A stretch of DNA of 13,770 bases from Candidatus Thorarchaeota archaeon (GTDB lineage: Archaea > Asgardarchaeota > Thorarchaeia > Thorarchaeales > Thorarchaeaceae). The notes under the pieces were generated by a model, which worked only from the letters and a program-made list of their open reading frames with translations, did not search any database and was not told the origin of the DNA. The stretch lies in contig JAFGAR010000150.1 in NCBI GenBank assembly GCA_016933575.1, positions 1 through 13,770 on the forward strand, given 5' to 3'. A program made the translations under genes and the position numbers. Of this stretch, positions 1 to 13,770 are shown in pieces. How positions within the stretch are numbered: position 1 is the first letter of the stretch; every line of letters starts with the position of its first letter.

Positions 1-3000
1 ATCCAAGGTAGTGGTGTGAATGTTTCAGCTTCAACTACTGGATGTAGTATCGTCTTCTCTGATACTATCTCGCTTGATGATGTAGAATCTAACTACAATG
101 ACTTCGGTTTCGATATGTTCTATTCAGATGCTGTCATCATCTCAAATAGTACAGTAATTGGTGCAGATGAGGGCGTCCATTTCTATGCATGCAACTACTG
201 CGAGGTGCAGAATTGCACTATTCTTGATTGTACAGACTACGGCATCCATGACATTGCAGGCTATTACCTGATTGTGAATGACAATGAGATTCACAATAAC
301 GCTGAGGGAATATGGGTCACAACAACAGGAGGAATTTTCTCGAATAACACAGTTTCGGGGCATTATGGCTCAGGACACGCCATCTATTGTCAGGGGTGGG
401 ATTGCATCATCGATAACAACACATGCAGTGACTACTGGGCAGGTATAAGAATCGTTATCAATACGAACAACACGATTCGAAATAATCATGTCTACAATAC
501 TGGACATGGTATTCATCTGTATTATTCAAGCAACATTACAGTTCAACATAACTACGTTGAGAATGGAGACCAATGCATCGACTTGTATTATTCGCACAAT
601 GTAACTGTTGAGGATAATACCTGCAATGATCACGTACCCTTCTATCTCCTAGGCTCTGATAATAACACATTTCGTTCAAACACAATCATGAACTATGTCA
701 ACTACGGAATACGAATCGACAATTCGAGTAGCAACATTGTAGAGGATTCCATCTTCACATCTTCAGCCAACTATGGAGTCCTTTTGTATTATTGTTCGGA
801 AACAACACTCAGTAATCTGACAATTGAGAATGTGATCAACAAGGGAATTTACCTGCATTACTCATCGATGTCTATAATTAATAAGTGTATCATCCGGAAT
901 TGTGAATACGCCATCCATTCCTATTATTGCCTTTCAACAACATGCAATGCCAGCACCTTAGAAGACTGCTCATTATATGGAATGTTTAACGAGCGGTCTT
1001 CAGGGACAACGATGACTTTCAATAATATCAGTAGGTGCGAATACGGACTTGAGATATACATTTCAGATGACTGCATAGCTGCCATCAATACTGTCGTGGA
1101 CTGCCAAACAGGAATCATGATAACTGGAACTCACAATACCCTAACTGCGAATGTACTCTCGAGATCGGGAGTCTTCTTGGAAAGTCAGTACATGACTGTG
1201 AGTGGAAATTGGGTAGATGGAAAACCAATTGGATATTTCGCAAACCTGACAAGCGGCACCTACGACTGCTCAGGCTTTGGACAGGTATTTTTCGTAAATT
1301 GTGATAATTTGGATATTCATTCTGGTATCTTTGAGAATGTTAGCTTTGGTTTGGTTCTTGCAGATTGTGATTATTCAACTGTGCATGATATCTATGTCAA
1401 TTATCCCTACAGAATTGGAATCTATTTGATTAGAGGATATTCTTGTACATTAGAGAATTTCACCTGTATTAATTCATCAGGCTCAGGTGTATGGACCTAT
1501 CAGACGGATCAATGCACAGTAAGAAATGGAACGACCTTCAACAATGCTGTTTGGGGCGTATACATAAGAGAATCTCCGAATACCATTGTGGCGAATATTA
1601 CGTCTAACGGTGATGGGATTGACATCTATGCATCGAACTACTCGGTTGTTGAGGACTGTGTGATAGCAAATAGTAATCTCATGGGACTCCTGATTCAAGG
1701 CTCGGATTACTGCGAGATACAATTCAACACGATATGGAACTCTGGAGAAGCAGCCCTTGCTATCTATTCTTCCAGTCATACATATGCAGCATACAATAAT
1801 CTCTCTGATAGCTATTGGCCAGCGAATGTCAGAATCCAAGATTCATACAACACGACGATCTACTGGAATCATATCTTGCATGATGAGTACTACGATGGTA
1901 TTCTTATCACGAACTCTGACTACAACTATATCATCAATAATACGATCTTGGACAACGGCTGCTATGGAATCAGAGTAGAATCGACAAGCACGAATTGCCA
2001 CATTTACTCGAATATCATCGCCTACAATGGAGTGGAGAATGCGTGGGACGATGGAGCGAGTAACAGCTGGGATAATGGCATCCACGGGAACAAGTGGAAT
2101 GACTACAGCGGTATCGGCACATATGCTATCCCAGGAAGCGCACTCAGCGTGGATCATTATCCGCAGTTGTACGATACCTTTGCACCAACCATCGATAGCC
2201 CATCTGATGTCACCTATGATGCTGGAGAATCAGGTGCATCCATTACTTGGGCACCAAGAGACGGTCACCCGTCAACATTTCAGATTTACAGAAATGGCAC
2301 GAGCATTGCGAGTGGTCCTTGGGGTGGTGGTGATATCCCGATAGATGTAGATGGCTTGGGCATTGGTACATACAACTACACCCTCAAGGTCACGGATCTT
2401 GCTGGAAATGTGAAGATTGATACTGTCTATGTCTTCGTTAGATTTGATAGCAAGCCTCCGACGTTAGACCAACCAGCTGATTTTCAATACAGCGAGTTCG
2501 TAGCGGGAAATGTCAGTTGGATGCCATTAGATGTGCATCCTTCTTCGTATGATATCTACCAGGATAGCATCCTCATAACTAGTTCTCCGTGGGATGGAGG
2601 TGATATAAGCTATGCATTCAACCTTACGATGGGTGCCTATAATTTCACGATTGTGGTCTTCGATACTGTAGGAAATAATGTGGCTGATACGGTCTTCGTG
2701 ACAATACTCGACGACTCACCTCCTGTAATAATTGGACCTGATGATTTCCTCGTGTTTCTTGGCACTATCGATGAAGTGCTTCGATGGAATGTTACTGACG
2801 CTCATCCAAATACAGCAATCGTCTACAAGAATGGCACTCAAGTTGTGACGGCTAATTTCTATGGCACCTTCGCCAATGTTTCAATTAACACACTAATTGA
2901 GGGTGTATTCAATTACACAGTGATAGTATGGGATACCAGTGGTAATAATGCAAGGAATACCGTCTGGATCACAATCTGGAACCCTGACTTTCCATTCATA

Positions 3001-4218
3001 GATCATCCTGATGACATCGAATTCGTTGAAGGCACCGCTGGAAATTATCTAGAATGGAACCCAATCAGCAATCAGCCTGACACATACTCGATTGAGGTCA
3101 ACGGAACAGAAAAGAAGAGCGGTATCTGGAGCGTGAATATCACCATAAATCTTGATGATTTTGCGGTGGGAATCCACAATATCACAGCAATTGTCTGGTC
3201 CCAAACTGGTAACTCTGCAACTGACACCGTCTTTCTGAGGGTTCTGTATAATCCGCCACCTGAAATCGATAGCCCTGCAGATCTGATGTATGTCGAGTCC
3301 ATTGGATTGGGACAAATAACTTGGCATCCTACTGATGATAATCCAAATTGGTGGTACCTTTACATCAATGGCACGCTCAGGAGCGATGGGGGATGGACCG
3401 GTGGCAAGGTGGTCGGAAATGTCAGCTACCTTAGTCATGGCATCTACAATGCAACATTGGTTGTCGAGGACATTGGAGGAAAGACAATCTCGGATACGGT
3501 CTATGTCAGAGTTGTCTATGAATTGAATCCACCGGTGATTGCAGGACCTGCTGATCTTTCGTATACATTCGGTGATACAGGGAATGTGCTAAGCTGGGGC
3601 GCCTTTGATGAGCATCCCTCTCATTTACTCGTCTATAGCAATGGAACAATAGTAGACACGAGAGCATGGGACGGGTCTGTCATTACTACGAGCGTTGATG
3701 GACTAGAGCCCGGAGTCCATAACATAACACTCCTTCTCTATGATATCGATTTGAACTCGAACTCAGATACAGTGATGGTGTTCGTCGAGAATATTCAACC
3801 GCCGACGCTCTCCTTGCAACCGGATGTCACGACCCAACAAGGTGCAGATTCGCAGCTCAACTGGAATCCGTCGTCGCTGTTTCCTGACCACTACGAGATC
3901 TATGTTAATGGTAGCATGGATGTGTCAACAACATGGAATGGGGGATCCATCTCATACGATCTCAAATATTTAGAGCCCGGAGTATACAATATTACTCTTG
4001 TCGTCTATGACCAGGCCGGCAATAGTGCCTCTGACAGTGTCTGGGTTCATATCGAGGGCATGGGTGCCCTACCAGATTTCATGTCTCCGCTCATCCAGGC
4101 AGGGTCAGTGGTCACGATTCTTGTGGTCATTGCAGCCGCCTATCGCATATTCAAGCAAGCCGGACAATCCAAGGAAGAATCAGACTGGCGTTCTATGATG
4201 GATGACTTTGGGCACTAA
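1..4218 (+). CDS. Large cell-surface protein (5'-truncated): right-handed parallel beta-helix (NosD/CASH-like) region, seven Ig-like repeats, C-terminal TM anchor
   Basis: The frame is open from base 1 (ATC CAA GGT AGT GGT GTG), so the true start probably lies upstream. It has many 'GI.l..s.n..i.nN.i' beta-helix repeats, VDGKPIGYF, and a NosD-like cap NAWDDGASNSWDNGIHGNKWNDY...DHYP. Seven ~90-aa repeats follow, then hydrophobic LIQAGSVVTILVVIAAAYRIF and a short tail. N-x-S/T sequons are abundant. Confidence 0.9.
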   Translation: MQGSGVNVSASTTGCSIVFSDTISLDDVESNYNDFGFDMFYSDAVIISNSTVIGADEGVHFYACNYCEVQNCTILDCTDYGIHDIAGYYLIVNDNEIHNNAEGIWVTTTGGIFSNNTVSGHYGSGHAIYCQGWDCIIDNNTCSDYWAGIRIVINTNNTIRNNHVYNTGHGIHLYYSSNITVQHNYVENGDQCIDLYYSHNVTVEDNTCNDHVPFYLLGSDNNTFRSNTIMNYVNYGIRIDNSSSNIVEDSIFTSSANYGVLLYYCSETTLSNLTIENVINKGIYLHYSSMSIINKCIIRNCEYAIHSYYCLSTTCNASTLEDCSLYGMFNERSSGTTMTFNNISRCEYGLEIYISDDCIAAINTVVDCQTGIMITGTHNTLTANVLSRSGVFLESQYMTVSGNWVDGKPIGYFANLTSGTYDCSGFGQVFFVNCDNLDIHSGIFENVSFGLVLADCDYSTVHDIYVNYPYRIGIYLIRGYSCTLENFTCINSSGSGVWTYQTDQCTVRNGTTFNNAVWGVYIRESPNTIVANITSNGDGIDIYASNYSVVEDCVIANSNLMGLLIQGSDYCEIQFNTIWNSGEAALAIYSSSHTYAAYNNLSDSYWPANVRIQDSYNTTIYWNHILHDEYYDGILITNSDYNYIINNTILDNGCYGIRVESTSTNCHIYSNIIAYNGVENAWDDGASNSWDNGIHGNKWNDYSGIGTYAIPGSALSVDHYPQLYDTFAPTIDSPSDVTYDAGESGASITWAPRDGHPSTFQIYRNGTSIASGPWGGGDIPIDVDGLGIGTYNYTLKVTDLAGNVKIDTVYVFVRFDSKPPTLDQPADFQYSEFVAGNVSWMPLDVHPSSYDIYQDSILITSSPWDGGDISYAFNLTMGAYNFTIVVFDTVGNNVADTVFVTILDDSPPVIIGPDDFLVFLGTIDEVLRWNVTDAHPNTAIVYKNGTQVVTANFYGTFANVSINTLIEGVFNYTVIVWDTSGNNARNTVWITIWNPDFPFIDHPDDIEFVEGTAGNYLEWNPISNQPDTYSIEVNGTEKKSGIWSVNITINLDDFAVGIHNITAIVWSQTGNSATDTVFLRVLYNPPPEIDSPADLMYVESIGLGQITWHPTDDNPNWWYLYINGTLRSDGGWTGGKVVGNVSYLSHGIYNATLVVEDIGGKTISDTVYVRVVYELNPPVIAGPADLSYTFGDTGNVLSWGAFDEHPSHLLVYSNGTIVDTRAWDGSVITTSVDGLEPGVHNITLLLYDIDLNSNSDTVMVFVENIQPPTLSLQPDVTTQQGADSQLNWNPSSLFPDHYEIYVNGSMDVSTTWNGGSISYDLKYLEPGVYNITLVVYDQAGNSASDSVWVHIEGMGALPDFMSPLIQAGSVVTILVVIAAAYRIFKQAGQSKEESDWRSMMDDFGH
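2185..4056 (+). repeat. Seven tandem ~90-aa Ig-like beta-sandwich repeats within the surface protein
   Basis: Units begin PTIDSPSD, PTLDQPAD, PVIIGPDD, PFIDHPDD, PEIDSPAD, PVIAGPAD, PTLSLQPD. Most contain W..D..P..y.iy.NG and G.yN.Tl.V.D..GN...DTV.V.V. Confidence 0.85.
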
Positions 4219-4329
4219 CCGCTCAGGAAGATACGAATATGTTTTGGAATCAGAAGATCCTGGAGGATCGACTTCGTCGCCAAGATATTTCACTGATTGA
4301 CTCATCTTGCTGCAAAATCAATGAGATTA

Positions 4330-4992
4330 TCATTCCTTGGTCTCACGCTTTCCATACTTTCGAAGGTAATACTGTCGCATGAAATGCGCCTCGAACTTGT
4401 TGATCTCCTTCGCCCCTCCGAGGAACTCAGCCTCAATGAACGCCTTACAGGCTTTCTCCAGCACGAAGGTGCAGGTGAATGCCTCTTCCATATCCCGACC
4501 AGTACAGACAGCGCCATGGTTCGCCATCAGCGCAGCATTCCGCCCTTTCAGCGCGTTCATTGTTTTTTTGACGATCTTCTTTGTTGAAGGGAGAGCGTAC
4601 TCAGCGACCCGAATGGTCGGACCGATGATCTGCACCATGTCGTCTAGGATCGGTGGAACCTCTCTTCGAGCAGCGGCGACTGTGGATGCGTTCATCGAAT
4701 GCGAGTGGATGACTGCGTTGATATCTTTTCTATCCCTGTAGATTGCGATGTGGAGCTTCATCTCAGCAGAGGGCTTATGCTTGCCTTCCCAGGTGACATT
4801 ATCTGAGCTGAAGTCGACGATGGTGATATCCTCAGGGACAAGGGTCTCATAGCTCATCCCGGAGGGTGTGATCGCCATTCTATACTCATCAATCCTACAG
4901 GAAATATTCCCCCATGTGCCACCAACCAGTCCATTCTGAATGAGTCGCTTCCCAGCATCGCATACTATCTTCTGAGATTCAGGAACATCCAT
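4330..4992 (-). CDS. Class II aldolase/adducin family protein (FucA-like), 220 aa
   Basis: GTWGNIS, ITPSG, PSAEMKLH (catalytic Glu), HSHS and ANHG (Zn ligands). The start is moved to ATG 4992 because a TTTATAA box at 5033-5027 puts transcription start near 5003. Confidence 0.9.
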   Translation of the reverse strand: MDVPESQKIVCDAGKRLIQNGLVGGTWGNISCRIDEYRMAITPSGMSYETLVPEDITIVDFSSDNVTWEGKHKPSAEMKLHIAIYRDRKDINAVIHSHSMNASTVAAARREVPPILDDMVQIIGPTIRVAEYALPSTKKIVKKTMNALKGRNAALMANHGAVCTGRDMEEAFTCTFVLEKACKAFIEAEFLGGAKEINKFEAHFMRQYYLRKYGKRETKE

Positions 4993-5026
4993 GAAGATCC
5001 CACAAATGTCCATACTAGTCAAGATA

Positions 5027-5033
5027 TTATAAA
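5027..5033 (-). promoter_or_regulatory. Archaeal TATA box for the aldolase gene
   Basis: TTTATAA on the minus strand, 35 nt before ATG 4992. Confidence 0.55.
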
Positions 5034-5088
5034 GGCAATCATTGAGAGAGTCCGACCTAATGATGGATTGACCACAACAATTGATGGA

Positions 5089-6564
5089 CTAACTGTAATA
5101 GCTTTGGGGTTCCACATTTTGCAGGGCCCTCTGGAATCTTGCTAAGGCGTCATCAATCACCTCGTCAGTATCTGCAAGACTAGTATACATACGAGACCCT
5201 GCAAGAGTCACGATACCTTCTGCCATATAGGCGGCTCCTATCTCCTCCATGAAATGCTGGCGAGCTTTGATCTCCTTCAAGATCGACTTGATCCTGATGA
5301 CATCCTTTGGAAGGCTGATCTTGATGAACATAGCACCAGAGGTCTCTAGATGGCAGATGGCTCCTTGGTTATAGGCAATAAAAGGGAGCTTCAGGTCCTC
5401 GATAATCTCCTCGAGTCCCTTGGTCAGTCGATCCCCTGCTCTTCCTGCGATCTCACATGCATTCGTTCTCTCGATCTCTTGAATCGCAAAATAGCCTGCT
5501 GCGGAACTCAATGGATTGGCAGCGAGGGTTCCGCCCACATAGGCGCGCTTCTTCCCGCCAGCGATTCCAGCGGCGAGGTGCTCCATGAGATCTCTCCTGC
5601 CCCCTAGACCACCTGCGGCAGGATAGCCTCCAGCGACGATCTTGCCAAAGGTGGTCAGATCGGGCTTGATCCCGAAGTAGCCTTGGGCTCCTCCGAGACC
5701 TATCCGTCCAAAGGTGACGACCTCATCGAATATCAGCAAAGCATCATACTGGTCACAGAGCTCACGGATCTGCTTGTTATGTTCCTTATCCACAGGTCGT
5801 GTACCAGACTCAGGACCGACGGGCTCAACGATCACTGCAGCTGTGCCTCCACGAAGACGATTCCTTGACAGCTTCTTTCGTAGCTTCTCGATGTTGTTCG
5901 GATAGACCTCTTGTGAATGCTGTCTGCTCCCCTTGGGTATGCCATGCGCTTCGAAGCCTCCAGTTCCGGGTATGTGAAGTCCATACACCATCTGGTCACT
6001 CCAGCCATGGTATGCACCACCCATCTTGATGACCTTCTTCTTCTTGGTGGCCAATCGGGCAAGTCTGAGTGCTGCCATAACAGACTCGGTACCGCTACCC
6101 AGCATGCGAAACATCTCGACTGCGGGGAGGTGCTTGTTGATCTCTCGAGCAAGCTTCAGCTCGAATTCTGAGAAGAGACCCGTCACTGGACCTCTCTCAT
6201 TGATCAATTGAATGACCTTCTCCCGCACTGGAGCATAGTTATTTCCCAGGATGATAGGTCCGCCCGCCTGCAAGAAGTCGATATAGCGATTGCCATCAAT
6301 GTCCCAGAGGTATGCTCCTTCTGCACGGTCGATGACGATGGGGAATGGATAGTTGAAGGCAAGATTATGCTGAACCCCTCCAGGGATGTACTGTCGGGCT
6401 TCAGTAATCATCTCTTTTGACTTTGCACACCTCTGCTCGAAATGCTCAAGATACTTCTGCAGGGAGTCTGCTTTTAACTTCTGTACCGGTAATTCCATCA
6501 TATGTTCTATCTTTCGATAGATATCTGCAGTATCGTGATAGTTGGATATACTATAACCCGACAT
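5089..6564 (-). CDS. Class III PLP-dependent aminotransferase, glutamate-1-semialdehyde 2,1-aminomutase (HemL)-like, 491 aa
   Basis: IPGGV, GAYLWDIDGNRYIDF, SGTESVMAALRLAR, GAYHG, IVEPV, LLIFDEVVT, DLTTFGK (PLP lysine), GGTLAANPLS. The first 61 residues of the 552-aa ORF look non-coding, so the likely start is MSGYSIS at 6564. Confidence 0.9.
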   Translation of the reverse strand: MSGYSISNYHDTADIYRKIEHMMELPVQKLKADSLQKYLEHFEQRCAKSKEMITEARQYIPGGVQHNLAFNYPFPIVIDRAEGAYLWDIDGNRYIDFLQAGGPIILGNNYAPVREKVIQLINERGPVTGLFSEFELKLAREINKHLPAVEMFRMLGSGTESVMAALRLARLATKKKKVIKMGGAYHGWSDQMVYGLHIPGTGGFEAHGIPKGSRQHSQEVYPNNIEKLRKKLSRNRLRGGTAAVIVEPVGPESGTRPVDKEHNKQIRELCDQYDALLIFDEVVTFGRIGLGGAQGYFGIKPDLTTFGKIVAGGYPAAGGLGGRRDLMEHLAAGIAGGKKRAYVGGTLAANPLSSAAGYFAIQEIERTNACEIAGRAGDRLTKGLEEIIEDLKLPFIAYNQGAICHLETSGAMFIKISLPKDVIRIKSILKEIKARQHFMEEIGAAYMAEGIVTLAGSRMYTSLADTDEVIDDALARFQRALQNVEPQSYYS

Positions 6565-6830
6565 CGTGTCTTCACGCAGATTCTCAAAAGAAGAAGTCTG
6601 ATGAATAAGTCTTTGGATAACTTCAGGAAAATTCGTTCTCCAATGCTTGTGATCAAATCCCTTCTCAATGGTAAGTAAACAGGGAGAAACAGAATTCCTT
6701 GAAGCTTGAAATTTGCTTCTGCGTGGATGTGTGTTTTTAAGCCTCATTCTGGTTCATATGCGTATGGATTAGATTTAAGAGCTAGTTCTTTTAGTGTATG
6801 ATAGATATGCATCCCTAGGAGATTATTGAT

Positions 6831-7529
6831 TTGGCATTCGGTATCCTTCATTTTGGATTTCTCATCACAGCACTCATTGTGACTGTGTGTATCATTGTTC
6901 TGTTAAATAGATACTTTTCTACAAAGAGCAGTTTGACTCTGGCATTCACTATCTTCCTTATGGCATATGTAATCTCAGCATACGTATACTTTGCGAGAGG
7001 CCTTTTTGACCTTCAATCAGCAGGAGATATCGCACTATGGAAAGTGACGAATATAATGTACCCATTGATGGTCGTCCCGCTCTTCATATTCCTTGGATAT
7101 CCGTACCTCATCGAAAAAGAGGGAACGATGATCGCACTGATAATGAAACTTGCAATGCTATACAGCTTCATCATCTCGGTTTTCAATTTCATCATAATTG
7201 GCATAGCTGATGTGCAATGGACCTATGATGACCCATATGGTCTTTCACATTACGCACTTACTCTCATACAGATTCCTTATGTCTATTATATCACCTTGAT
7301 ACTGGTAGTCAGTATCGCATTCTTCTCCGTAATACTGCTTGCTCTAGCATTCAGAAGAGAAACAGATCCCTTCTTCAAGACAAGAACCCTTTTGCTCCTC
7401 ATTGGATGGCTAAGCGTTTTTCTCGGGCAGCTATTACTACTAAGTCCAACGCTCGCTATTGTCCAGCCAATGGTTGCAATCCCTGGAGTCATTCTAATAG
7501 CGATAGGAGTCATTCGCCCGAGAAGCTAA
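6831..7529 (+). CDS. Integral membrane protein with about seven TM helices (HisKA_7TM-like sensor module, stand-alone)
   Basis: Seven hydrophobic segments, with a longer loop between TM4 and TM5. TTG start preceded by AGGAG at 6817-6821 and TTTAAG at 6774-6779. The family assignment is inference. Confidence 0.8.
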   Translation: MAFGILHFGFLITALIVTVCIIVLLNRYFSTKSSLTLAFTIFLMAYVISAYVYFARGLFDLQSAGDIALWKVTNIMYPLMVVPLFIFLGYPYLIEKEGTMIALIMKLAMLYSFIISVFNFIIIGIADVQWTYDDPYGLSHYALTLIQIPYVYYITLILVVSIAFFSVILLALAFRRETDPFFKTRTLLLLIGWLSVFLGQLLLLSPTLAIVQPMVAIPGVILIAIGVIRPRS

Positions 7530-7665
7530 TCAATCTCTGAGTACAAATGATGAATCCAGACGCATGCATATGAAAACGATAAGTTAAATATCCATCTAAA
7601 TAGATTTCCTCCAATTCCCCAGATTATCTTGGGTCAAGGGAAATACAGTGGCAAGCCCCTTGATT

Positions 7666-8598
7666 CTACCCCAGTGGCATAACAAGTAGAAAGTAGAAGA
7701 TGAAGACATCTGGAAGGAAATGAATAAGCCACGCCCAGAAGAAACCCTTCGTTTCAATCATGCTCTTTCCGAGGAAATATCCCAAGAATGCAGCTAGAGC
7801 GACACCGATGATGCCATTCGGGTAGCCAAAATAGTGACCCAGACCGAAATATACTGCAGTGATCTGTAGACCTTCATTCTTGCCAATGCCTGGTTCAAGC
7901 TCGCTTAGAGGAGCGGCGCGTAGGGTGAATTCCTCATTGAATGCGTTCATCGCGGCGATGAGCAGTGCCGCAGGCAACAACGGAAGCCCATTCACTATCA
8001 GATCTAGAGAGGGTTGAAATGAACCAACCAAGAAAATGACAGTGAAGACAACGAAGATGATGATGAAAGGTCTTGCGAGCTTTGTCCATGGCTCAGGAGC
8101 CTTCATTCCCAACAATCGAGAGGGCTCGGCCTCGGCATCAATCTGACCTTTGATGAGGTAAAAGTCACTTGGTCTACGTCCTGAAATGAGCAGAAAAAGG
8201 AGAACAGCAAATGCGGGAGTGAGTCGTAGCAGATGCACTGCAAACATATCAAATGGGGCCGGGATAGTTGCCACCCATATGCTCCATTCAGCACTTGCCC
8301 GGATCATGGGAACAAGTCCAAAATCCCAGCCGCCACCAAAACCAAAGAAGAAGATGATTGTCATGATCGAATAGAATCTCCACATGTATCGCGTTGGTTG
8401 ATAGGCAAGTGCTAGTCCAAGTAGGGCTAGCAAAATCACTCCATGGATAAATGGATACCAGAATGGCACCATGCCAAGAATCTCACGGAAGGGAATGATT
8501 GCCAAAGAGCTTGCGAAAAGCATCGCAGTCCATGCGAGTGTTACAACATAATCGACGGACTTTGAGCTTTGGTTCTCTGAACTATCTATTGTTGACAA
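7666..8598 (-). CDS. CPBP (Abi/Rce1, CAAX protease-like) intramembrane glutamic endopeptidase, 310 aa
   Basis: NEEFTLRA, FGLGHY and WLIHFLPD motifs in a multi-TM protein. The start is reassigned to TTG 8598, preceded by GGAGGAG (8612-8606) inside the upstream gene. Confidence 0.88.
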   Translation of the reverse strand: MSTIDSSENQSSKSVDYVVTLAWTAMLFASSLAIIPFREILGMVPFWYPFIHGVILLALLGLALAYQPTRYMWRFYSIMTIIFFFGFGGGWDFGLVPMIRASAEWSIWVATIPAPFDMFAVHLLRLTPAFAVLLFLLISGRRPSDFYLIKGQIDAEAEPSRLLGMKAPEPWTKLARPFIIIFVVFTVIFLVGSFQPSLDLIVNGLPLLPAALLIAAMNAFNEEFTLRAAPLSELEPGIGKNEGLQITAVYFGLGHYFGYPNGIIGVALAAFLGYFLGKSMIETKGFFWAWLIHFLPDVFIFYFLLVMPLG

Positions 8599-9457
8599 TT
8601 GATGACTCCTCCAGAACGAACGGCTCCTTAGAAGGATTTGAAGATATCTGTCCTCTTCTCGACTCAAGAACACGGAGAATGATCACAAGTCCCCAGATGA
8701 ATATCATAAGTGTCCAATGTCGTGATGAGTTGTAGATGAATGTGAAGGTGGTACCTAAAGCTTGGTGAGCGAACATCGCTGTCAGGATATTCCTCTTCGA
8801 GAGATTGAATAGCGAATCGATCATGAAGGACTGCCCTACCATTGAAAGATATCCAAGAACCGAGGGTTCGAGTCCGAAAGAGATGTTCATCATCTGGTGC
8901 CACAACCACCAGTAACTTCCGATGATGAAACTACCTATCTCACGACCATATCTCTGCTGCAGCTCTGTCATGGCAAAGCCTCTCCAAGCAGGTTCCTCAA
9001 AAAGTGGGCTTGTAATGAGGCTAGCCGAGAAATGAATGGGTATGACGGCCAATAGAACAAATCCCAGTTCAGCATACATCACAGGATCAAGGATGAAAAA
9101 TTCAGTCTCAAGACCTAACATGAAGTTAATTCCGTTCGCTGCAATAGCAAGCAATGGGTAGGCGAAGGCTGCCAGAATCAGGTAAGGTATGCTCGATTTC
9201 CATGTGCGAACACTGGAGAGGATGCCATCGAAGCTAACCTGTTTGTGAGTCGCCTTCTCGATTATCTTTAGTGATATGAGAGGGCTAACTGCTCCTAGGG
9301 TTGATGGAATCAAAACGAGCTCTAGAGGCCAAAGACCCAAGAATATCTGAATCCAAAAAATCCACCCCAAAGGTATTGTCAGTAAGAAGAAAATGCCTAA
9401 GCGATATCGGAATGCGAAATTGCTTTCTTGGCCACCATCGGTCTTTATCCGTCCCAT
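8582..9457 (-). CDS. CPBP (Abi/Rce1) intramembrane glutamic endopeptidase, 291 aa
   Basis: FEEPAWRG, WWLWH and AMFAHQ motifs, with multiple TM helices. Confidence 0.88.
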   Translation of the reverse strand: MGRIKTDGGQESNFAFRYRLGIFFLLTIPLGWIFWIQIFLGLWPLELVLIPSTLGAVSPLISLKIIEKATHKQVSFDGILSSVRTWKSSIPYLILAAFAYPLLAIAANGINFMLGLETEFFILDPVMYAELGFVLLAVIPIHFSASLITSPLFEEPAWRGFAMTELQQRYGREIGSFIIGSYWWLWHQMMNISFGLEPSVLGYLSMVGQSFMIDSLFNLSKRNILTAMFAHQALGTTFTFIYNSSRHWTLMIFIWGLVIILRVLESRRGQISSNPSKEPFVLEESSIVNNR

Positions 9458-9472
9458 TTCGTTATTTCCTTA

Positions 9473-9566
9473 ATTGGTATTTGTAATATTGGTTTGTGCA
9501 GCAAATGGTTTATCACACAAACCATTATTTAAAGCTATTGCTTGCGATGCTTTGCGGATATATAAA
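9473..9566 (-). promoter_or_regulatory. Promoter/operator region of the CPBP pair: inverted repeat, phased TGGT boxes and TATA candidates
   Basis: AATAtTGGTTTGTG (9485-9498) pairs with CACAAACCAtTATT (9516-9529). TGGT occurs at 9475, 9490 and 9506, and ACCA at 9521. Minus-strand TATA candidates are TTTAAA (9533-9528) and TTTATATA (9566-9559). Confidence 0.5.
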
Positions 9567-9713
9567 GCAGAGATAGCCCTGCGTTCTCTCAGATATACTT
9601 TGATAGGCTTTCGGGCGAATCTTCTCAGGGATTACCTTTACTTGAATGGCGAATTAGCTATAGCAGTCCATAGAAGATGACTCGGGTAACAGTCATTGCG
9701 CCAAATAGGTATC

Positions 9714-9719
9714 TTATAT
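9714..9719 (+). promoter_or_regulatory. TATA box for a probably leaderless MBL hydrolase mRNA
   Basis: TTATAT ends 24 nt before ATG 9743, and there is no SD motif. Confidence 0.5.
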
Positions 9720-9742
9720 TCAACCATGTTTCAAAGTGTAAT

Positions 9743-10528
9743 ATGATTCTCTCTCGAAATATAAAGATAGGAATAGTTGCGATATTCATTGTGGGACTGG
9801 CAACGCCCGTAGCTCTGATTGCCATTCTTAATTCTCCTCCACAAAATACCATCAACCTTACATTACTCGACAACGCCGGAGTAATGATAGAAGCAGGTGA
9901 TGTACGGATATACATCGATCCGTATCTATTACCTGATAATTATACGGAGAAACCTGCCGACATAATACTAGTGACGCATCCGCACGGTGACCACTATCAT
10001 TATGCGTCAATCTCAGATATAGCTACAGAGGATACGATATTCATCTTTCCCGAGAACATGTCCACAGAGATAGCAAGACATGATGCTATTGGTGTGAATC
10101 CAGGAGATAGCATTCAAGTCGGCGATATCAATATCACTGCATTCTACATGTATACAACTGCTCCAGAGGGATATGAGCCTAGCCATCCCCCTGAGGCAAA
10201 TTGGACGAGCTACATCATTGATATCAATGGGTTCACAATTTTCCACGCCGGAGACTCGAAATGCATCCCAGAATATGAACAACTTACTGGGAAGATCAAT
10301 GTCGCATTATTACCACTAGGTCCTGGTTGTCAGACCATGTATAGGAGTGAAGTCGTTGATGCCATTGAGGTCATCGAACCTGACTACTTCATTCCGATAC
10401 ATTACACGGAGGATGAGTTTGACACGTTCTGTTCTCTCTATGACACTCAGATAGAGAACTTGGGATGTACAATGCTAGCAATGACATACTTCAGCTCGCA
10501 TATCTTTGCCCCTTCAGATGAATCCTAA
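9743..10528 (+). CDS. MBL-fold metallo-hydrolase (UPF0173/Lactamase_B_3-like) with N-terminal membrane anchor or signal, 261 aa
   Basis: IYIDPY, ILVTHPHGDH (HxHxDH), FHAGDS and IPIHY motifs. N-terminal RNIK followed by IGIVAIFIVGLATPVALIAIL. Confidence 0.9.
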   Translation: MILSRNIKIGIVAIFIVGLATPVALIAILNSPPQNTINLTLLDNAGVMIEAGDVRIYIDPYLLPDNYTEKPADIILVTHPHGDHYHYASISDIATEDTIFIFPENMSTEIARHDAIGVNPGDSIQVGDINITAFYMYTTAPEGYEPSHPPEANWTSYIIDINGFTIFHAGDSKCIPEYEQLTGKINVALLPLGPGCQTMYRSEVVDAIEVIEPDYFIPIHYTEDEFDTFCSLYDTQIENLGCTMLAMTYFSSHIFAPSDES

Positions 10529-10547
10529 TCTAAATCTCTCTATTTAT

Positions 10548-10629
10548 CTCGAAACCGAGGTGAGAATTGATCTGCTGATTCTCACCTCCCATTTCGAGGT
10601 TAACTTCAATTGACCAAGCCTTTTTCTTC
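10548..10629 (+). terminator. Long intergenic hairpin followed by a T-rich tract downstream of the MBL gene
   Basis: CTCGAAA (10548-54) pairs with TTTCGAG (10592-98), enclosing GAGGTGAGAAT/ATTCTCACCTC (11 perfect bp). TTTTTCTT follows at 10621. Confidence 0.5.
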
Positions 10630-10664
10630 AGATCACTCCAGCATATCAGACGGAGCTACTTAGG

Positions 10665-11465
10665 ATGCCAAATGAGCCCATGTTTAGAAAAATGACGGAA
10701 GCAGACTGGGAAGCATTTCACGCGTTTGATCGATCTGCGTTCCCAGACGATTCCATGTCTGAGGAGTTCTTCTTCAGAAGACTCGAACGTGACGGATTCT
10801 ACTCACTTGATGTTGGAGAGGAGATAGTCGGACAACTTATCATCGCGCCTTTCGGAGAGAATGAAGGGCATCTCGGTAGAATAGCGATAGCTCCTACGCA
10901 TCAGGGCAAAGGATACGGGAAATACCTTATGAGAAAGGCTATGGAGTTGTTCAAGGAACAGGGGTATCGAAGAGTCCATCTCTATACGCAGGATCATAAC
11001 ACTATTGCACAGGGTTTGTACAAGCAATTCGGATTCGAGAAGAGTGGAACGAGCTGGCACTACTTTGTACCACTTGATACATTGAGCCCCTCTGGCGAGT
11101 ATCATTGCCAGCCCGTCCAAGAGAATGAGATTGATTCCGTTGGAGAAAGGTATGAATCATTGCCTTCATTACAGATCAGAAGATTGCTCGAGTTTCCAGA
11201 AAACCCTGTACTGATCCTTAAGGATTCAGAGGGAAATCTCAAAGGAGCGTGTCGATTCACGCCGAGCTTTCCGGGATGCTTTCCCTTCGAAGTAGATGAA
11301 CCAGGTGGCTTCGATGACTTCATTTTTGGATTGACACCTTACACTCTTCCTGATTTCGACTACGTTCGAGTCACATTCGTGAATAATGAGAAGTTAGCAA
11401 TCATCTGTAATCAAAGAGGGTACAAGTTGCACCATAGGCTTTACAAAATGACAGCCGAAATATGA
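10665..11465 (+). CDS. GNAT family N-acetyltransferase (RimI-like N-terminal domain plus C-terminal second domain)
   Basis: Acetyl-CoA motif A IAIAPTHQGKGYGK and motif B NTIAQGLYKQFGF. Confidence 0.9.
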   Translation: MPNEPMFRKMTEADWEAFHAFDRSAFPDDSMSEEFFFRRLERDGFYSLDVGEEIVGQLIIAPFGENEGHLGRIAIAPTHQGKGYGKYLMRKAMELFKEQGYRRVHLYTQDHNTIAQGLYKQFGFEKSGTSWHYFVPLDTLSPSGEYHCQPVQENEIDSVGERYESLPSLQIRRLLEFPENPVLILKDSEGNLKGACRFTPSFPGCFPFEVDEPGGFDDFIFGLTPYTLPDFDYVRVTFVNNEKLAIICNQRGYKLHHRLYKMTAEI

Positions 11466-11760
11466 AGCAAATATCGCATATTTGAGAAATCCGAATCATG
11501 GAGAAAGCATCACGGATTCTTCTTAATATTCCACCCATTCTCAGGTTCGCGAAAAAAGATGACTAGAGAGAGAACGAATCAACGAGCGATCATATCATCG
11601 AAACCTCTTGAAGAGATATCCACGTGCAGAAATATAAAGACCATACATTTCAAAACTGACCTTAGGAACAGAGAATCTAATGTTTTCTGTCAGTAGGCGC
11701 TTTTCTTTGCCATGAGGTTTCAAATACATATGCCTATAAGGGTATGATATGCACACAAAC

Positions 11761-11884
11761 TTGCAGGACATCAAGCAGGATGCGCCTTATCAGAAAGAGA
11801 TTCGTGATTGGTTTCAACCGTTCGCACCTCCCCGATGGATACGCTACTTTTGAACGACCTGCAATCAATTATGCTTCGGCATAA
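11761..11884 (+). ncRNA. Candidate structured cis-regulatory 5' leader RNA of the SSB gene
   Basis: Closing stem TTGCAGG (11761-67)/CCTGCAA (11858-64), internal hairpin 11804-11825, and terminal TTATGC-TTCG-GCATAA hairpin (11869-84). TATAAG lies at 11735-40. Folded by eye only. Confidence 0.5.
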
Positions 11885-11897
11885 GTGAGTGATACAC

Positions 11898-12503
11898 ATG
11901 AGTTACGAACGAGAGCCTGTAGAGGCCCAAGTGGCTGACCTGAAGCCACGCATGAAGAATCTTGTAATCACATTCAAGGTTCTTGAAATAGGTGAGGAAC
12001 GCGAGGTTTCCTCCCGAAATGATGGAGCAACCCACAGAGTCTTAGATGCCGTTGTCGGAGATGCGACAGGCACAGTTGCAGTCCCATGCTGGGATGACAC
12101 TATTGACATGCTTGAAGTAGGAAAGACCTTCACTCTGAAGAATGGCTACACCGGCTTATTCAGAGGAAACCTTCGACTTAACATCGGTAAGTATGGAGAA
12201 CTTTCAGAAGCTGAAACACCCATTGAAGAAGTCAACATGGAGAACGACATGTCTGCTGAAGAGCATGAAGACACACGGCGTTCCTATCGAGGCGGCGGCG
12301 GTGGTGGCCGAGGCGGCGGCGGTGGATACCGAAGCGGTGGCGGCGGAGACCGAGGCTATGGCGGTGGTGGTGGCGGCAGCTATGGCGGCGGTGGTGGCGG
12401 CAGCTATGGCGGCGGTGGAAGAGATCGTGGCTATGGCGGCGGTGGCGGCGGAAGAGACCGACGTGACCGTGGCAACAGTCGTGGCGGCGGAAGACGCTAC
12501 TAA
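11898..12503 (+). CDS. ssb: Single-OB-fold single-stranded nucleic acid binding protein (archaeal SSB/RPA type) with long Gly/Arg/Tyr-rich tail, 201 aa
   Basis: VADLKP, FKVLEIGEEREV, HRVLDAVVGDATGTV..PCWD and LKNGYTGLFRGNLRLNIGKYG match crenarchaeal/Thermoplasmata-type single-OB SSB. SD-like GAGTGA precedes ATG 11898. Confidence 0.88.
   Translation: MSYEREPVEAQVADLKPRMKNLVITFKVLEIGEEREVSSRNDGATHRVLDAVVGDATGTVAVPCWDDTIDMLEVGKTFTLKNGYTGLFRGNLRLNIGKYGELSEAETPIEEVNMENDMSAEEHEDTRRSYRGGGGGGRGGGGGYRSGGGGDRGYGGGGGGSYGGGGGGSYGGGGRDRGYGGGGGGRDRRDRGNSRGGGRRY
12288..12500 (+). repeat. GC-rich low-complexity GGN repeat encoding the RGG/YGG tail, including a 24-nt tandem unit (YGGGGGGS)
   Basis: CTATGGCGGYGGTGGTGGCGGCAG at 12356-12379 and 12380-12403, with a partial copy at 12404-12418. 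Confidence 0.9.
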
Positions 12504-12528
12504 GATTCATCCAATTTGGGTAAATACT

Positions 12529-12569
12529 AAGAATGGGTTGTAGAATGCAACCCATTTTTCCTTCTTTCT
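12529..12569 (+). terminator. Hairpin plus pyrimidine-tract terminator of the SSB gene
   Basis: AATGGGTTGTA-gaa-TGCAACCCATT (12532-12556), followed by TTTCCTTCTTTCT. Confidence 0.7.
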
Positions 12570-12662
12570 AATAGCCTATTCATGCTTTGACGTTCTTTAT
12601 GGACATCTTCAAGGCGTTTCGTTTCATACCATAAATGTAATCAAGTCTGAATTGAAGTAAAC

Positions 12663-12992
12663 CTACTCCACATTTAGTAATTCAACCTCGAACACCAATG
12701 TTGAGTTGGGTGGTATCAGACCGTTTCCGACATCTCGAGTGCCATAAGCCATTTCAGGAGGAATCGTTAGTCTTCTCTTCCCGCCAATCCTCATAGACAT
12801 CACACCTTCATCCCATCCTCGAATTACCTGTCCAACACCGATGGTGAACTCAAAAGGCTCACCTCTGTCCACTGAACTATCGAACTTCTTACCATCAGTA
12901 AGCCATCCAGTGTAATGTACGACAACCTTCTGACCGCGTTGGGGTGTTTCGCCACTTCCGACCACTAGGTCCTCGATCTGTAGATCTGACAT
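12663..12992 (-). CDS. Short FKBP-type peptidyl-prolyl cis-trans isomerase (FKBP12-like), 109 aa
   Basis: VVVHYTGWLTDGKKFDSS, GQVIRGWDEG, IPPEMAYG and IPPNSTLVFEVELL. The start is set to MSDLQ (12992), with TATATTAA at 13025-13018. Confidence 0.95.
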   Translation of the reverse strand: MSDLQIEDLVVGSGETPQRGQKVVVHYTGWLTDGKKFDSSVDRGEPFEFTIGVGQVIRGWDEGVMSMRIGGKRRLTIPPEMAYGTRDVGNGLIPPNSTLVFEVELLNVE

Positions 12993-13115
12993 AGGCTTTT
13001 TCCTTCCTGCTGCCATATTAATATACCATATCCCGTGCTGCATTCGGTACCAATTCTGCGGAGCGGCAAGAACAAGAAAACCCTTCGAACCCTCAAAGTA
13101 AGAAAGGTGTTCATC

Positions 13116-13719
13116 ATGGATATTACACCTGAACTAAAGGAACTGGGACTATCAGAGGTCATCCATCGGCTACAAGGTATGGAATAAACAGATGTCTGTG
13201 AAAGGATCGTAGACTTCTTCTTCGGAGAGGAAAATGGTCAATGCAGGAGGGATGTCAAATGGAGGCACCACGATCTAGCAGGAGTGAAACTCGGTCATGT
13301 GGGAAGTCAAAGTTCATACGACCAACGAGCGATCGAGATAAACGAGATCTATGTGGGACAAGCATCTCTGAATCGCACCTACACCATTTATGATGGATCA
13401 TATGTAGAGTTCATCGCTGATACACTTCATCATCACCGAGGAGATGACTGCTTGTTTTTGCCATCTAAGAGTCTCGACAGACATTCAGCATACAGAGGGC
13501 AGCTCGCGGCAATCCTGTATTTGCTCAACGAGTACTGGGATTACTTCAACGAATTGACTCTCCTCACAGAATCTTGAATGGATGGTAGACTACAACCATC
13601 ATCATACGATCATCATCTATGGAGACCAGGAAGCAGCTCGTGCAAAGTTCTTGACCGAAGATCGAAGGAAATGGCAAGACCGAGTTCTCAGTTTCAATCT
13701 ATATCCGAAACATGAGTGA
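13116..13719 (+). pseudogene. Disrupted ~200-aa hypothetical gene (one nonsense codon, one frameshift)
   Basis: AGGTG SD (13105-09) and ATG 13116 give MDITPELKELGLSEVIHRLQGME, then TAA (13185-87). The same frame continues open through the 13284-13577 ORF. A shift near 13573 gives LEWMVDYNHHHTIIIYGDQEAARAKFL...PKHE, ending at TGA 13719. Confidence 0.6.
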
Positions 13720-13770
13720 TATCTGAGTATAAGGATTTGACACTCGAATCCTGTTTGAACATGCCTGGAC

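Follow-up and report, generated by a model that had tools for sequence, protein, structure and literature searches.

The window analysed here is a 13,770-nucleotide (nt) stretch of a Candidatus Thorarchaeota archaeon genome (assembly GCA_016933575.1, contig JAFGAR010000150.1, positions 1–13,770). We studied the 432-nt gap between a GNAT acetyltransferase gene (10665–11465) and an open reading frame (ORF) of 201 amino acids (aa) at 11898–12503, whose product resembles the single-stranded DNA-binding protein SsoSSB. The part of this gap that adjoins the 201-aa ORF holds a promoter-like block followed by an element that, judged from sequence and predicted fold, appears to be a real, conserved and so far undescribed structured mRNA leader, that is, a new RNA family of a known kind.

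The promoter, the leader and the gene

The 201-aa protein has a single oligonucleotide-binding (OB) fold (Pfam PF21473, Ssb-like_OB, E = 2e-14). Its nearest solved structures were PDB 1o7i (S. solfataricus SSB), 2mna and 7wcg (E = 2.6e-14), and human SOSS-B1 was matched at E = 8e-13. By these matches the downstream protein is a simple SSB of the SsoSSB/hSSB1 type, in agreement with the SSB-like OB fold proposed in an earlier, preliminary description of the locus. The C-terminal tail is rich in Gly, Arg and Tyr and ends in the residues RRY, and the acidic C-terminal partner-binding tail that characterizes SsoSSB and hSSB1 was not found in the 201-aa protein. The N-terminus, MSYE(E)REP, was kept among the paralogs.

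Upstream of the gene, the distance from the start of a (T/A)TAAG motif to the G of the sequence GCAGG, which opens the leader, was exactly 27 nt in 73 of the 82 distinct leaders and 26–28 nt in 79 of them. In the window, the motif is TATAAG, whose ATAAG part starts 27 nt before G11763. Family-wide, a CA.AA-type block lay 5′ of (T/A)TAAG, and a T directly preceded the G of GCAGG. In the usual archaeal geometry, the centre of the TATA box is ~26–27 nt upstream of the transcription start. Because of the fixed TATA distance and this geometry, transcription is predicted to start at ~11763, the first base of P1, the closing stem of the leader. Conservation was also seen ~30–47 nt upstream of P1 in all members (11718–11734 in the window), in the form of a CCAaTGcACAAG-type block that reads CAAATACATA in the window. 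This block upstream of the TATA-like box could be a transcription factor B recognition element (BRE) together with the binding site of a dedicated transcription factor.

The predicted minimum free energy (MFE) fold of the ~135-nt leader consists of a rod of ~100 nt (P1 to P5), closed by the first bases of the predicted transcript, and then a separate hairpin, P6. After the rod and P6 come ~10–16 A/U-rich nt (AAUAUAC, UACAC) together with the Shine-Dalgarno-like (SD-like) motif and the AUG. The rod has conserved internal loops, a conserved AACAC-type loop and an invariant UUUU, and no pseudoknot was predicted in the leader. The 3′ end of the 16S ribosomal RNA was GGAUCACCUCCU in four genomes of the genus, and GUGAU of the window is complementary to it over 5 nt; the commoner family form, GAGAGA, is a weak SD motif.

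Much of this architecture had been anticipated in the preliminary description. TATAAG was present where it had been placed, and the start expected at ~11760–65 is supported by the TATA-like motif standing at a fixed 27 nt from the closing stem across the family. The closing stem TTGCAGG/CCTGCAA was reproduced by the ViennaRNA MFE fold, the hairpin GTGATTGGT-TTCA-ACCGTTCGC was found at 11804–11825, and the hairpin TTATGC-TTCG-GCATAA (11869–11884) is indeed followed by GAGTGA (11887–11892) and by the ATG at 11898. Within the irregular helix that had been proposed, the pairings TCAAG/TTTGA and GCG/CGC stood, and TATC/GATA had to be replaced, as the MFE fold pairs TTATC with GATGG. The UUCG tetraloop, which had been given weight there, is not conserved, and close relatives have CUCG, UUUG, CGUAG, AUGUU, ACAUU or UAAUU loops instead.

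Distribution and structural conservation of the leader

A blastn search with the leader against the source genome and 27 genomes of the genus returned chance matches only, because the leader family is too divergent for blastn. The family was revealed by printing the 110 nt before each paralog ATG side by side. Upstream of all close paralogs and orthologs, the conserved blocks were a promoter-like motif, (T)GCAGG, AAG, CTT, GG, GAAG, TTTT and CCTG, and on the 3′ side a small hairpin, GAG.GA and the ATG; TTTT was invariant. The spacing from GCAGG to the ATG was 126–139 nt in all those compared.

A first covariance model (R1) was built from 17 sequences of one well-aligned subgroup, with the structure taken from their MFE folds, and a second model (R2) was rebuilt after R1 had aligned 34 leaders; the window was in neither training set. 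R2 matched the window at 11758–11900 on the forward strand over all of its 139 positions (1–139; 42 bits, E = 2e-7), and the runner-up had an E value of 0.5. With a full-length R2 match that reaches the ATG of an SsoSSB-like gene and a TATA-like motif ~27 nt before P1, the window copy falls within the family as we defined it. In the source genome, R2 found six sites, all directly 5′ of SSB-like paralogs and at no other gene. Across the genus, 27 of 28 genomes had sites, 69 in all; ~30 of these sites were checked against protein matches, and each of the ~30 immediately precedes an SSB-like ORF. In a phylum-wide sample, sites were present in 17 of the 26 genomes of the same family, in nine genera, and, under stricter filters, in none of 124 genomes from 26 other families.

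At loci fetched independently by protein similarity, the R2 matches ended at ATG+2. Among the 94 aligned R2 matches, 91 end at the ATG of an ORF with an OB domain (SsoSSB-like) and the remaining three run into contig ends, and the element was never met away from an SSB-like start codon. These comparisons showed the same predicted leader before essentially every close paralog or ortholog of the SsoSSB-like genes in one Thorarchaeota family; at one paralog of the source genome (C139:21911, 57% identical), it was not detectable. The observation rises above chance because promoter, leader and ATG form a unit conserved at a fixed position at ~90 related loci.

No Rfam 15 family reached its gathering score anywhere in the window, and in the region 11400–12000, searched with E values up to 10, nothing overlapped the leader (11763–11897). 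The lone nearby match was a chance-level snoRNA on the minus strand (11658–11743), upstream of the predicted start site, and a tRNA scan found none. The lack of an Rfam match, together with conservation in the family, upholds the earlier suggestion of an undescribed structured leader.

Support for the fold differed between its parts: it is solid for P1 and P6 and moderate for the inner stems, P2 to P4 being probable and the apical P5 variable. Of the stems in the preliminary description, the closing stem and the hairpin that precedes the SD-like motif were conserved, with compensatory changes in both. In P1 the changes were G-C to A-U and U-A to C-G. Between subfamilies, P3 changed from C-G to G-C (GCG/CGC, AGG/CCU, AGC/GCU); within the subgroup of the window, P3 was invariant and the P2b pair varied among AU, GC, UG and UA. 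The TTTT tract, which contributes to the 3′ strand of P2, was invariant in alignment A1. In P4, a CUUC-type strand faces a conserved purine strand of the GAAG type, and the two were paired in 87–93% of cases in the structure-fitted alignments and in 90% in the structure-blind one. P5 varies in sequence from one subfamily to the next, and a hairpin forms there in most members. All nine sequences of the subgroup that includes the window copy keep P6, although its loop varies; it is a longer hairpin at the position where the other subfamilies have a 4-bp TCGC/GCGA hairpin with C-G to A-U and G-C to A-U changes.

In structure-fitted alignments of 34 sequences and of 52 distinct sequences, standard pairs filled 88% and 80% of the cells, respectively, against ~44% for slid partners. 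Two-sided changes occurred in 18 and 24 of the 36 pairs, and the covariation scores were 0.19 and 0.23, compared with 0.04–0.09 for slid partners; none of 500 shuffles reached the observed values. When the MFE structure of one member was laid on a structure-blind MAFFT alignment, 79% of the cells were paired (36–47% when slid) and the covariation score was 0.160 (0.05–0.08), a value that 1 of 500 shuffles reached. The same helix order was found in most of the 34 independent MFE folds.

Some candidate features of the fold were tried and set aside. A FourU or ROSE thermometer was rejected, as the partner of the invariant UUUU is CAAG of P2 and not the SD-like motif. An alternative pairing of the U-tract with the ribosome-binding site (RBS) was not favoured. 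The pairing of GUAUA in the P1–P2 linker with UAUAC before the AUG, seen by eye in one subgroup only, was dropped, and no tandem G.A arrangement that would mark a kink-turn or C/D-box was visible in the internal loops of the folds.

The SSB-like genes of a second Asgard family (f12) have conserved leaders of their own, of ~110 nt, and these share the Thorarchaeota layout. A TATA box lies ~22–25 nt before a closing stem (AUCAG/CUGAU or GCAGG/CCUG), followed by a rod of ~90 nt whose 3′ side carries a U-tract; another ~25–30 nt separate the rod from the ATG. The region before the ATG is GUGGUACCGAAA in f12, whereas the Thorarchaeota leaders have P6 and GAGnGA there. R2 gave a single weak match on f12 (E = 0.18), the sequence having diverged past the reach of the model. 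From the shared layout, homology of the two kinds of leader is plausible, and the equivalent architecture in f12 suggests that the device may predate the Thorarchaeota family. In one f12 subtype, RNAalifold suggested that the U-tract UUUUUGG could alternatively pair with CCGAAAA directly before the AUG, and such a pairing might act as an on/off switch.

Table 1. Coordinates of the leader, its promoter and related features. Positions are those of the window unless a contig or locus is named.
Feature	Position	Strand	Basis
Promoter block: BRE-like CAAaTaCAnA, then TATA-like box (TATAAG, 11735–11740)	11718–11742	+	Fixed spacing; similarity to L118 from 11718
Predicted transcription start: G preceded by T, at which pairing of the GCAGG stem begins	11763	+	TATA distance and archaeal geometry
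P1, 5′ strand, TTGCAGG	11761–11767	+	MFE; pairs with 11858–11864; CAGG/CCTG invariant; flanking pair G-C, G-U or A-U
5′ strands of P2 (TCAAG, 11771–11775), P2b (AG, 11777–11778) and P3 (GCG, 11782–11784)	11771–11784	+	MFE
5′ strands of P4 (TTATC, 11787–11791) and P4b (GAG, 11797–11799)	11787–11799	+	MFE
P5, apical hairpin, GTGA/TCGC and TGGT/ACCG, loop TTCA	11804–11825	+	MFE; least well supported part
3′ strands of P4b (CTC, 11828–11830) and P4 (GATGG, 11834–11838)	11828–11838	+	MFE
3′ strands of P3 (CGC, 11842–11844), P2b (CT, 11847–11848) and P2 (TTTGA, 11849–11853)	11842–11853	+	MFE; includes invariant TTTT
P1, 3′ strand, CCTGCAA	11858–11864	+	MFE; family alignments
P6 hairpin, TCA and TTATGC, loop TTCG, GCATAA and TGA	11865–11888	+	MFE; ends inside the SD-like motif
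SD-like motif GAGTGAT; family-wide GAG(A/T)GA	11887–11893	+	GAG.GA invariant in A1
SsoSSB-like OB-fold coding sequence, 201 aa, glycine-rich RGG/GYG tail	11898–12503	+	Pfam PF21473, 1o7i, SOSS-B1
Terminator-like hairpin followed by a T-rich run, 3′ of the SSB gene	12529–12569	+	Consensus scan only
SsoSSB-like paralogs in the source genome (G000)	Contigs C215, C156 (three copies), C7, C139		
Tandem SsoSSB-like pairs in the genus	L005, L007, L012, L013, L014		
SSB-like loci with leaders in the second Asgard family (f12)	L025, L193–L215 (e.g. L212:1379–1503)		

The source genome had 14 OB matches, of which ~7 were close paralogs of the 201-aa protein, and the genomes of the genus carried several SsoSSB-like copies each, often in tandem. 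The tails of 94 leader-linked genes were Gly-rich in 76 and absent in eight (OB-only). The OB-only proteins of the SsoSSB-like family are ~127–133 aa long, and the majority of copies carry RGG/GYG tails. Each leader-bearing copy has a promoter and a leader of its own. The source genome also has a separate RPA-like gene (G000:C21:40347–40649; Rep_fac-A_C, 604-aa frame).

The GNAT or FKBP neighbours were absent at all related loci compared for synteny. Between the window and the closest ortholog (L118:1318–2105; OB domain 98% identical), similarity was limited to 11718–12515, with unrelated flanks; it starts ~45 nt before the predicted start site and stops 12 nt past the stop codon. As the similarity is confined in this way, promoter, leader and gene make up a cassette without conserved neighbours, and the SSB cassettes appear to move or to be re-placed as promoter-leader-gene units. 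A 59-aa ORF on the minus strand (11595–11774), most of which lies beyond the block shared with the closest ortholog, is probably spurious. Elsewhere in the window lie a 1405-aa ORF that is open at its 5′ end (1–4218, plus strand), a class II aldolase gene adjoining a class III aminotransferase gene (4330–6747, minus strand), and two neighbouring genes for Rce1-like CAAX proteases (7666–9457, minus strand).

Possible functions of the leader

As it precedes the whole SSB-like family, the leader is probably a cis-acting post-transcriptional control element common to these paralogs. In our analysis, the role that we favour, with a confidence slightly short of even, is that of a feedback operator for Csp-like RNA chaperones; we favour it because the leader is confined to one nucleic-acid-binding family, and because a family of small OB-fold chaperones with long conserved leaders recalls the Escherichia coli csp genes. 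Exclusive linkage of this kind is a mark of autogenous control, for which T4 gene 32, the ribosomal-protein leaders and the csp genes are precedents. The SsoSSB/hSSB1 type of the protein, the cold-induced crenarchaeal SSB that serves as an RNA chaperone in place of Csp (PMC10684826), the lack of cold-shock domain matches in 28 genomes of the genus and the separate RPA-like gene of the source genome also fit feedback or chaperone control. Single-strand-binding RNA-chaperone proteins present in excess would bind the leader, or melt it, near P6 and the A/U-rich stretch where ribosomes bind, which would change translation initiation or the life-time of the mRNA. The total pool of SSB-like proteins would thereby be set, and the mRNA would probably also be protected by its paired 5′ end.

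Several observations weigh against reading the leader as a folded operator. We know of no sequence specificity in the single-strand binding of SsoSSB-type proteins, which makes a specific operator a less than obvious fit. The folding energy, which the preliminary description had expected to be better than that of shuffled sequences, was better, but modestly: the MFE of the window copy was −36.3 kcal/mol (z = −1.53), with 13 of 200 shuffles as stable, so that energy alone does not set this fold apart from chance, and the mean z of the family was −1.08 on the plus strand and −0.50 on the minus strand, with 19% of the members below −2 on the plus strand. Two-sided-change pairs on the structure-blind alignment numbered 11, compared with 10.7 in shuffles, which is no excess, and many of the aligned sequences are close kin. 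RNAalifold retained P1 alone, or P1 and P6, in family-wide alignments, and partial rods in runs on subgroups. Structure-blind scans for mutual information and for Watson-Crick-consistent columns were swamped by the subfamily signal and by C/T-versus-G columns, and the inner helices are less certain for this reason. Predicted accessibility of the SD-like motif is only half, and it does not change sharply. A transcribed leader has weak support from a metatranscriptome library, in which one 222-nt contig from a ~95% identical relative covers 11775–11994 and bridges leader and coding sequence, but neither strand nor ends can be read from contigs, and this one may stem from DNA in the library; this lone contig came from run X1, and runs X2, X6 and X7 gave no cover.

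It is unlikely, in our estimate, that the leader is an RNA thermosensor like the 5′ untranslated regions (UTRs) of bacterial cspA/B/G/I, in which temperature would alter the fold and hence mRNA stability or translation, leading to induction in the cold. The irregular, G.U-rich and marginally stable rod would suit a melting element, the E. coli csp family offers a parallel with its multi-copy small OB-fold proteins and ~135-nt leaders, and the cold-shock domain PF00313 was found in none of the 28 genus genomes, with control genomes positive. The SSB of Saccharolobus is dispensable for replication and induced by cold; it can melt RNA duplexes, and csp mutants of E. coli are complemented by it, and the same authors cite 5′ UTR thermoswitches as the bacterial precedent (PMC10684826). 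However, a partition-function scan of 85 leaders from 4 to 50 °C gave gradual change only and no switch, the unpaired probability of the SD-like motif rising from 0.35 to 0.47 and the pairing probability of P1 falling from 0.87 to 0.76; the scan is a thermodynamic prediction, and kinetic or co-transcriptional folds lie beyond its reach. The invariant U-tract is not the preferred partner of the ribosome-binding region, and the leader has no match to the Rfam cspA model. A constitutive 5′ stabilizer or translation enhancer, which would shield an abundant mRNA from 5′-end-dependent decay and present the RBS without any sensing, seems equally unlikely to us, and both readings are live rivals of the feedback operator. 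That the predicted start and the first paired base of P1 coincide throughout the family, that P1 is the most robust helix and that no alternative fold was predicted would all fit it, and 5′-terminal stem-loops stabilize bacterial mRNAs such as ompA. However, a simple protective hairpin would need neither ~100 nt with conserved internal loops, an invariant UUUU and an AACAC-type loop, nor confinement to one gene family, and no other gene of the source genome has the leader.

An element that acts at the level of DNA or is selfish, be it a transcription-factor operator in the transcribed region, a promoter hairpin in single-stranded DNA (ssDNA) or a palindromic mobile insert, is very improbable. 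The window copy does fold better on the opposite strand (11760–11898, z = −2.99 against −1.53), and the cassette lacks conserved neighbours. In the family, however, the sense strand had the lower z in 61 of 88 members and is also favoured by the 311 G.U cells compared with 101 A.C cells. A canonical archaeal promoter lies at a fixed upstream distance, the restriction of the element to SSB-like start codons also argues against such an origin, and the copies belong to chromosomal paralogs that sit among housekeeping genes on different contigs. A riboswitch for a small molecule or an ion has hardly any likelihood in our view. The leader is a structured 5′ UTR that is conserved, as are its internal loops, and this would agree with one; yet no Rfam riboswitch was matched at E values up to 10, the rod has no multi-helix junction, and the linked genes encode nucleic-acid-binding proteins only, not metabolism or transport. 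The preliminary description had left thermosensor, autoregulatory and riboswitch-like functions side by side, and the in-silico tests separate none of these; they gave no temperature switch, and the riboswitch is unlikely because of the gene association.

In the wider form of the feedback operator, which we hold to be possible and put forward tentatively, the leaders may be a shared operator by which multi-copy, RGG-tailed, SSB-derived RNA chaperones, as functional stand-ins for Csp proteins in a lineage without cold-shock domains, sense their own abundance, temperature or both. It would be the first family-specific structured regulatory leader in Asgard archaea. Archaea have few known structured cis-regulatory mRNA elements, and literature searches and Rfam 15 gave none for Asgard archaea. 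The known control of eukaryotic glycine-rich RNA-binding proteins is feedback through their own transcript, and the eukaryote-like RGG/GYG tails occur here in the closest archaeal relatives of eukaryotes. If true, the device would be convergent with the bacterial csp leaders and with the self-regulation of these eukaryotic proteins. As its sequence family, gene association and predicted start site are defined, the leader is directly testable in vitro. It also bears on a question raised in Crenarchaeota, where SSB acts as an RNA chaperone in place of Csp and the regulation of such Csp-replacing proteins has been described as unknown (PMC10684826).

Comparison with known systems

Large conserved hairpins directly 5′ of an ssb-like gene, as found here, are also formed by the Frpo/ssi-type ssDNA promoters of conjugative plasmids. 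The plasmid hairpins work on the DNA strand that bacterial mobile elements transfer, whereas the Thorarchaeota leader has an ordinary archaeal promoter, a sense-strand G.U bias and chromosomal, multi-copy genes.

Like the Thorarchaeota leader, the 5′ UTRs of E. coli cspA/B/G/I are ~135–160 nt long, reach from promoter to RBS and are common to paralogs of a small OB-fold chaperone. The control of bacterial csp genes is post-transcriptional and combines autoregulation with temperature-dependent folding (PMC10684826). Unlike cspA, the Thorarchaeota gene encodes an SsoSSB-type OB fold with an RGG tail and not a cold-shock domain, it belongs to an archaeal host with a TATA/BRE promoter, and its leader has neither a sequence nor a structure match to the Rfam cspA thermoregulator model and no predicted temperature switch.

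The T4 gene 32 operator resembles the Thorarchaeota leader in that the mRNA of an SSB carries a folded 5′ element and then an unstructured, A/U-rich RBS stretch. In T4, excess gene 32 protein represses its own translation at this operator. The Thorarchaeota leader has the same succession of a folded element and an A/U-rich RBS region, to which we add, as a proposal, binding by its own product. The two differ in the folded part, which is a small pseudoknot serving as nucleation site in T4 and a ~100-nt rod followed by a hairpin in the Thorarchaeota leader.

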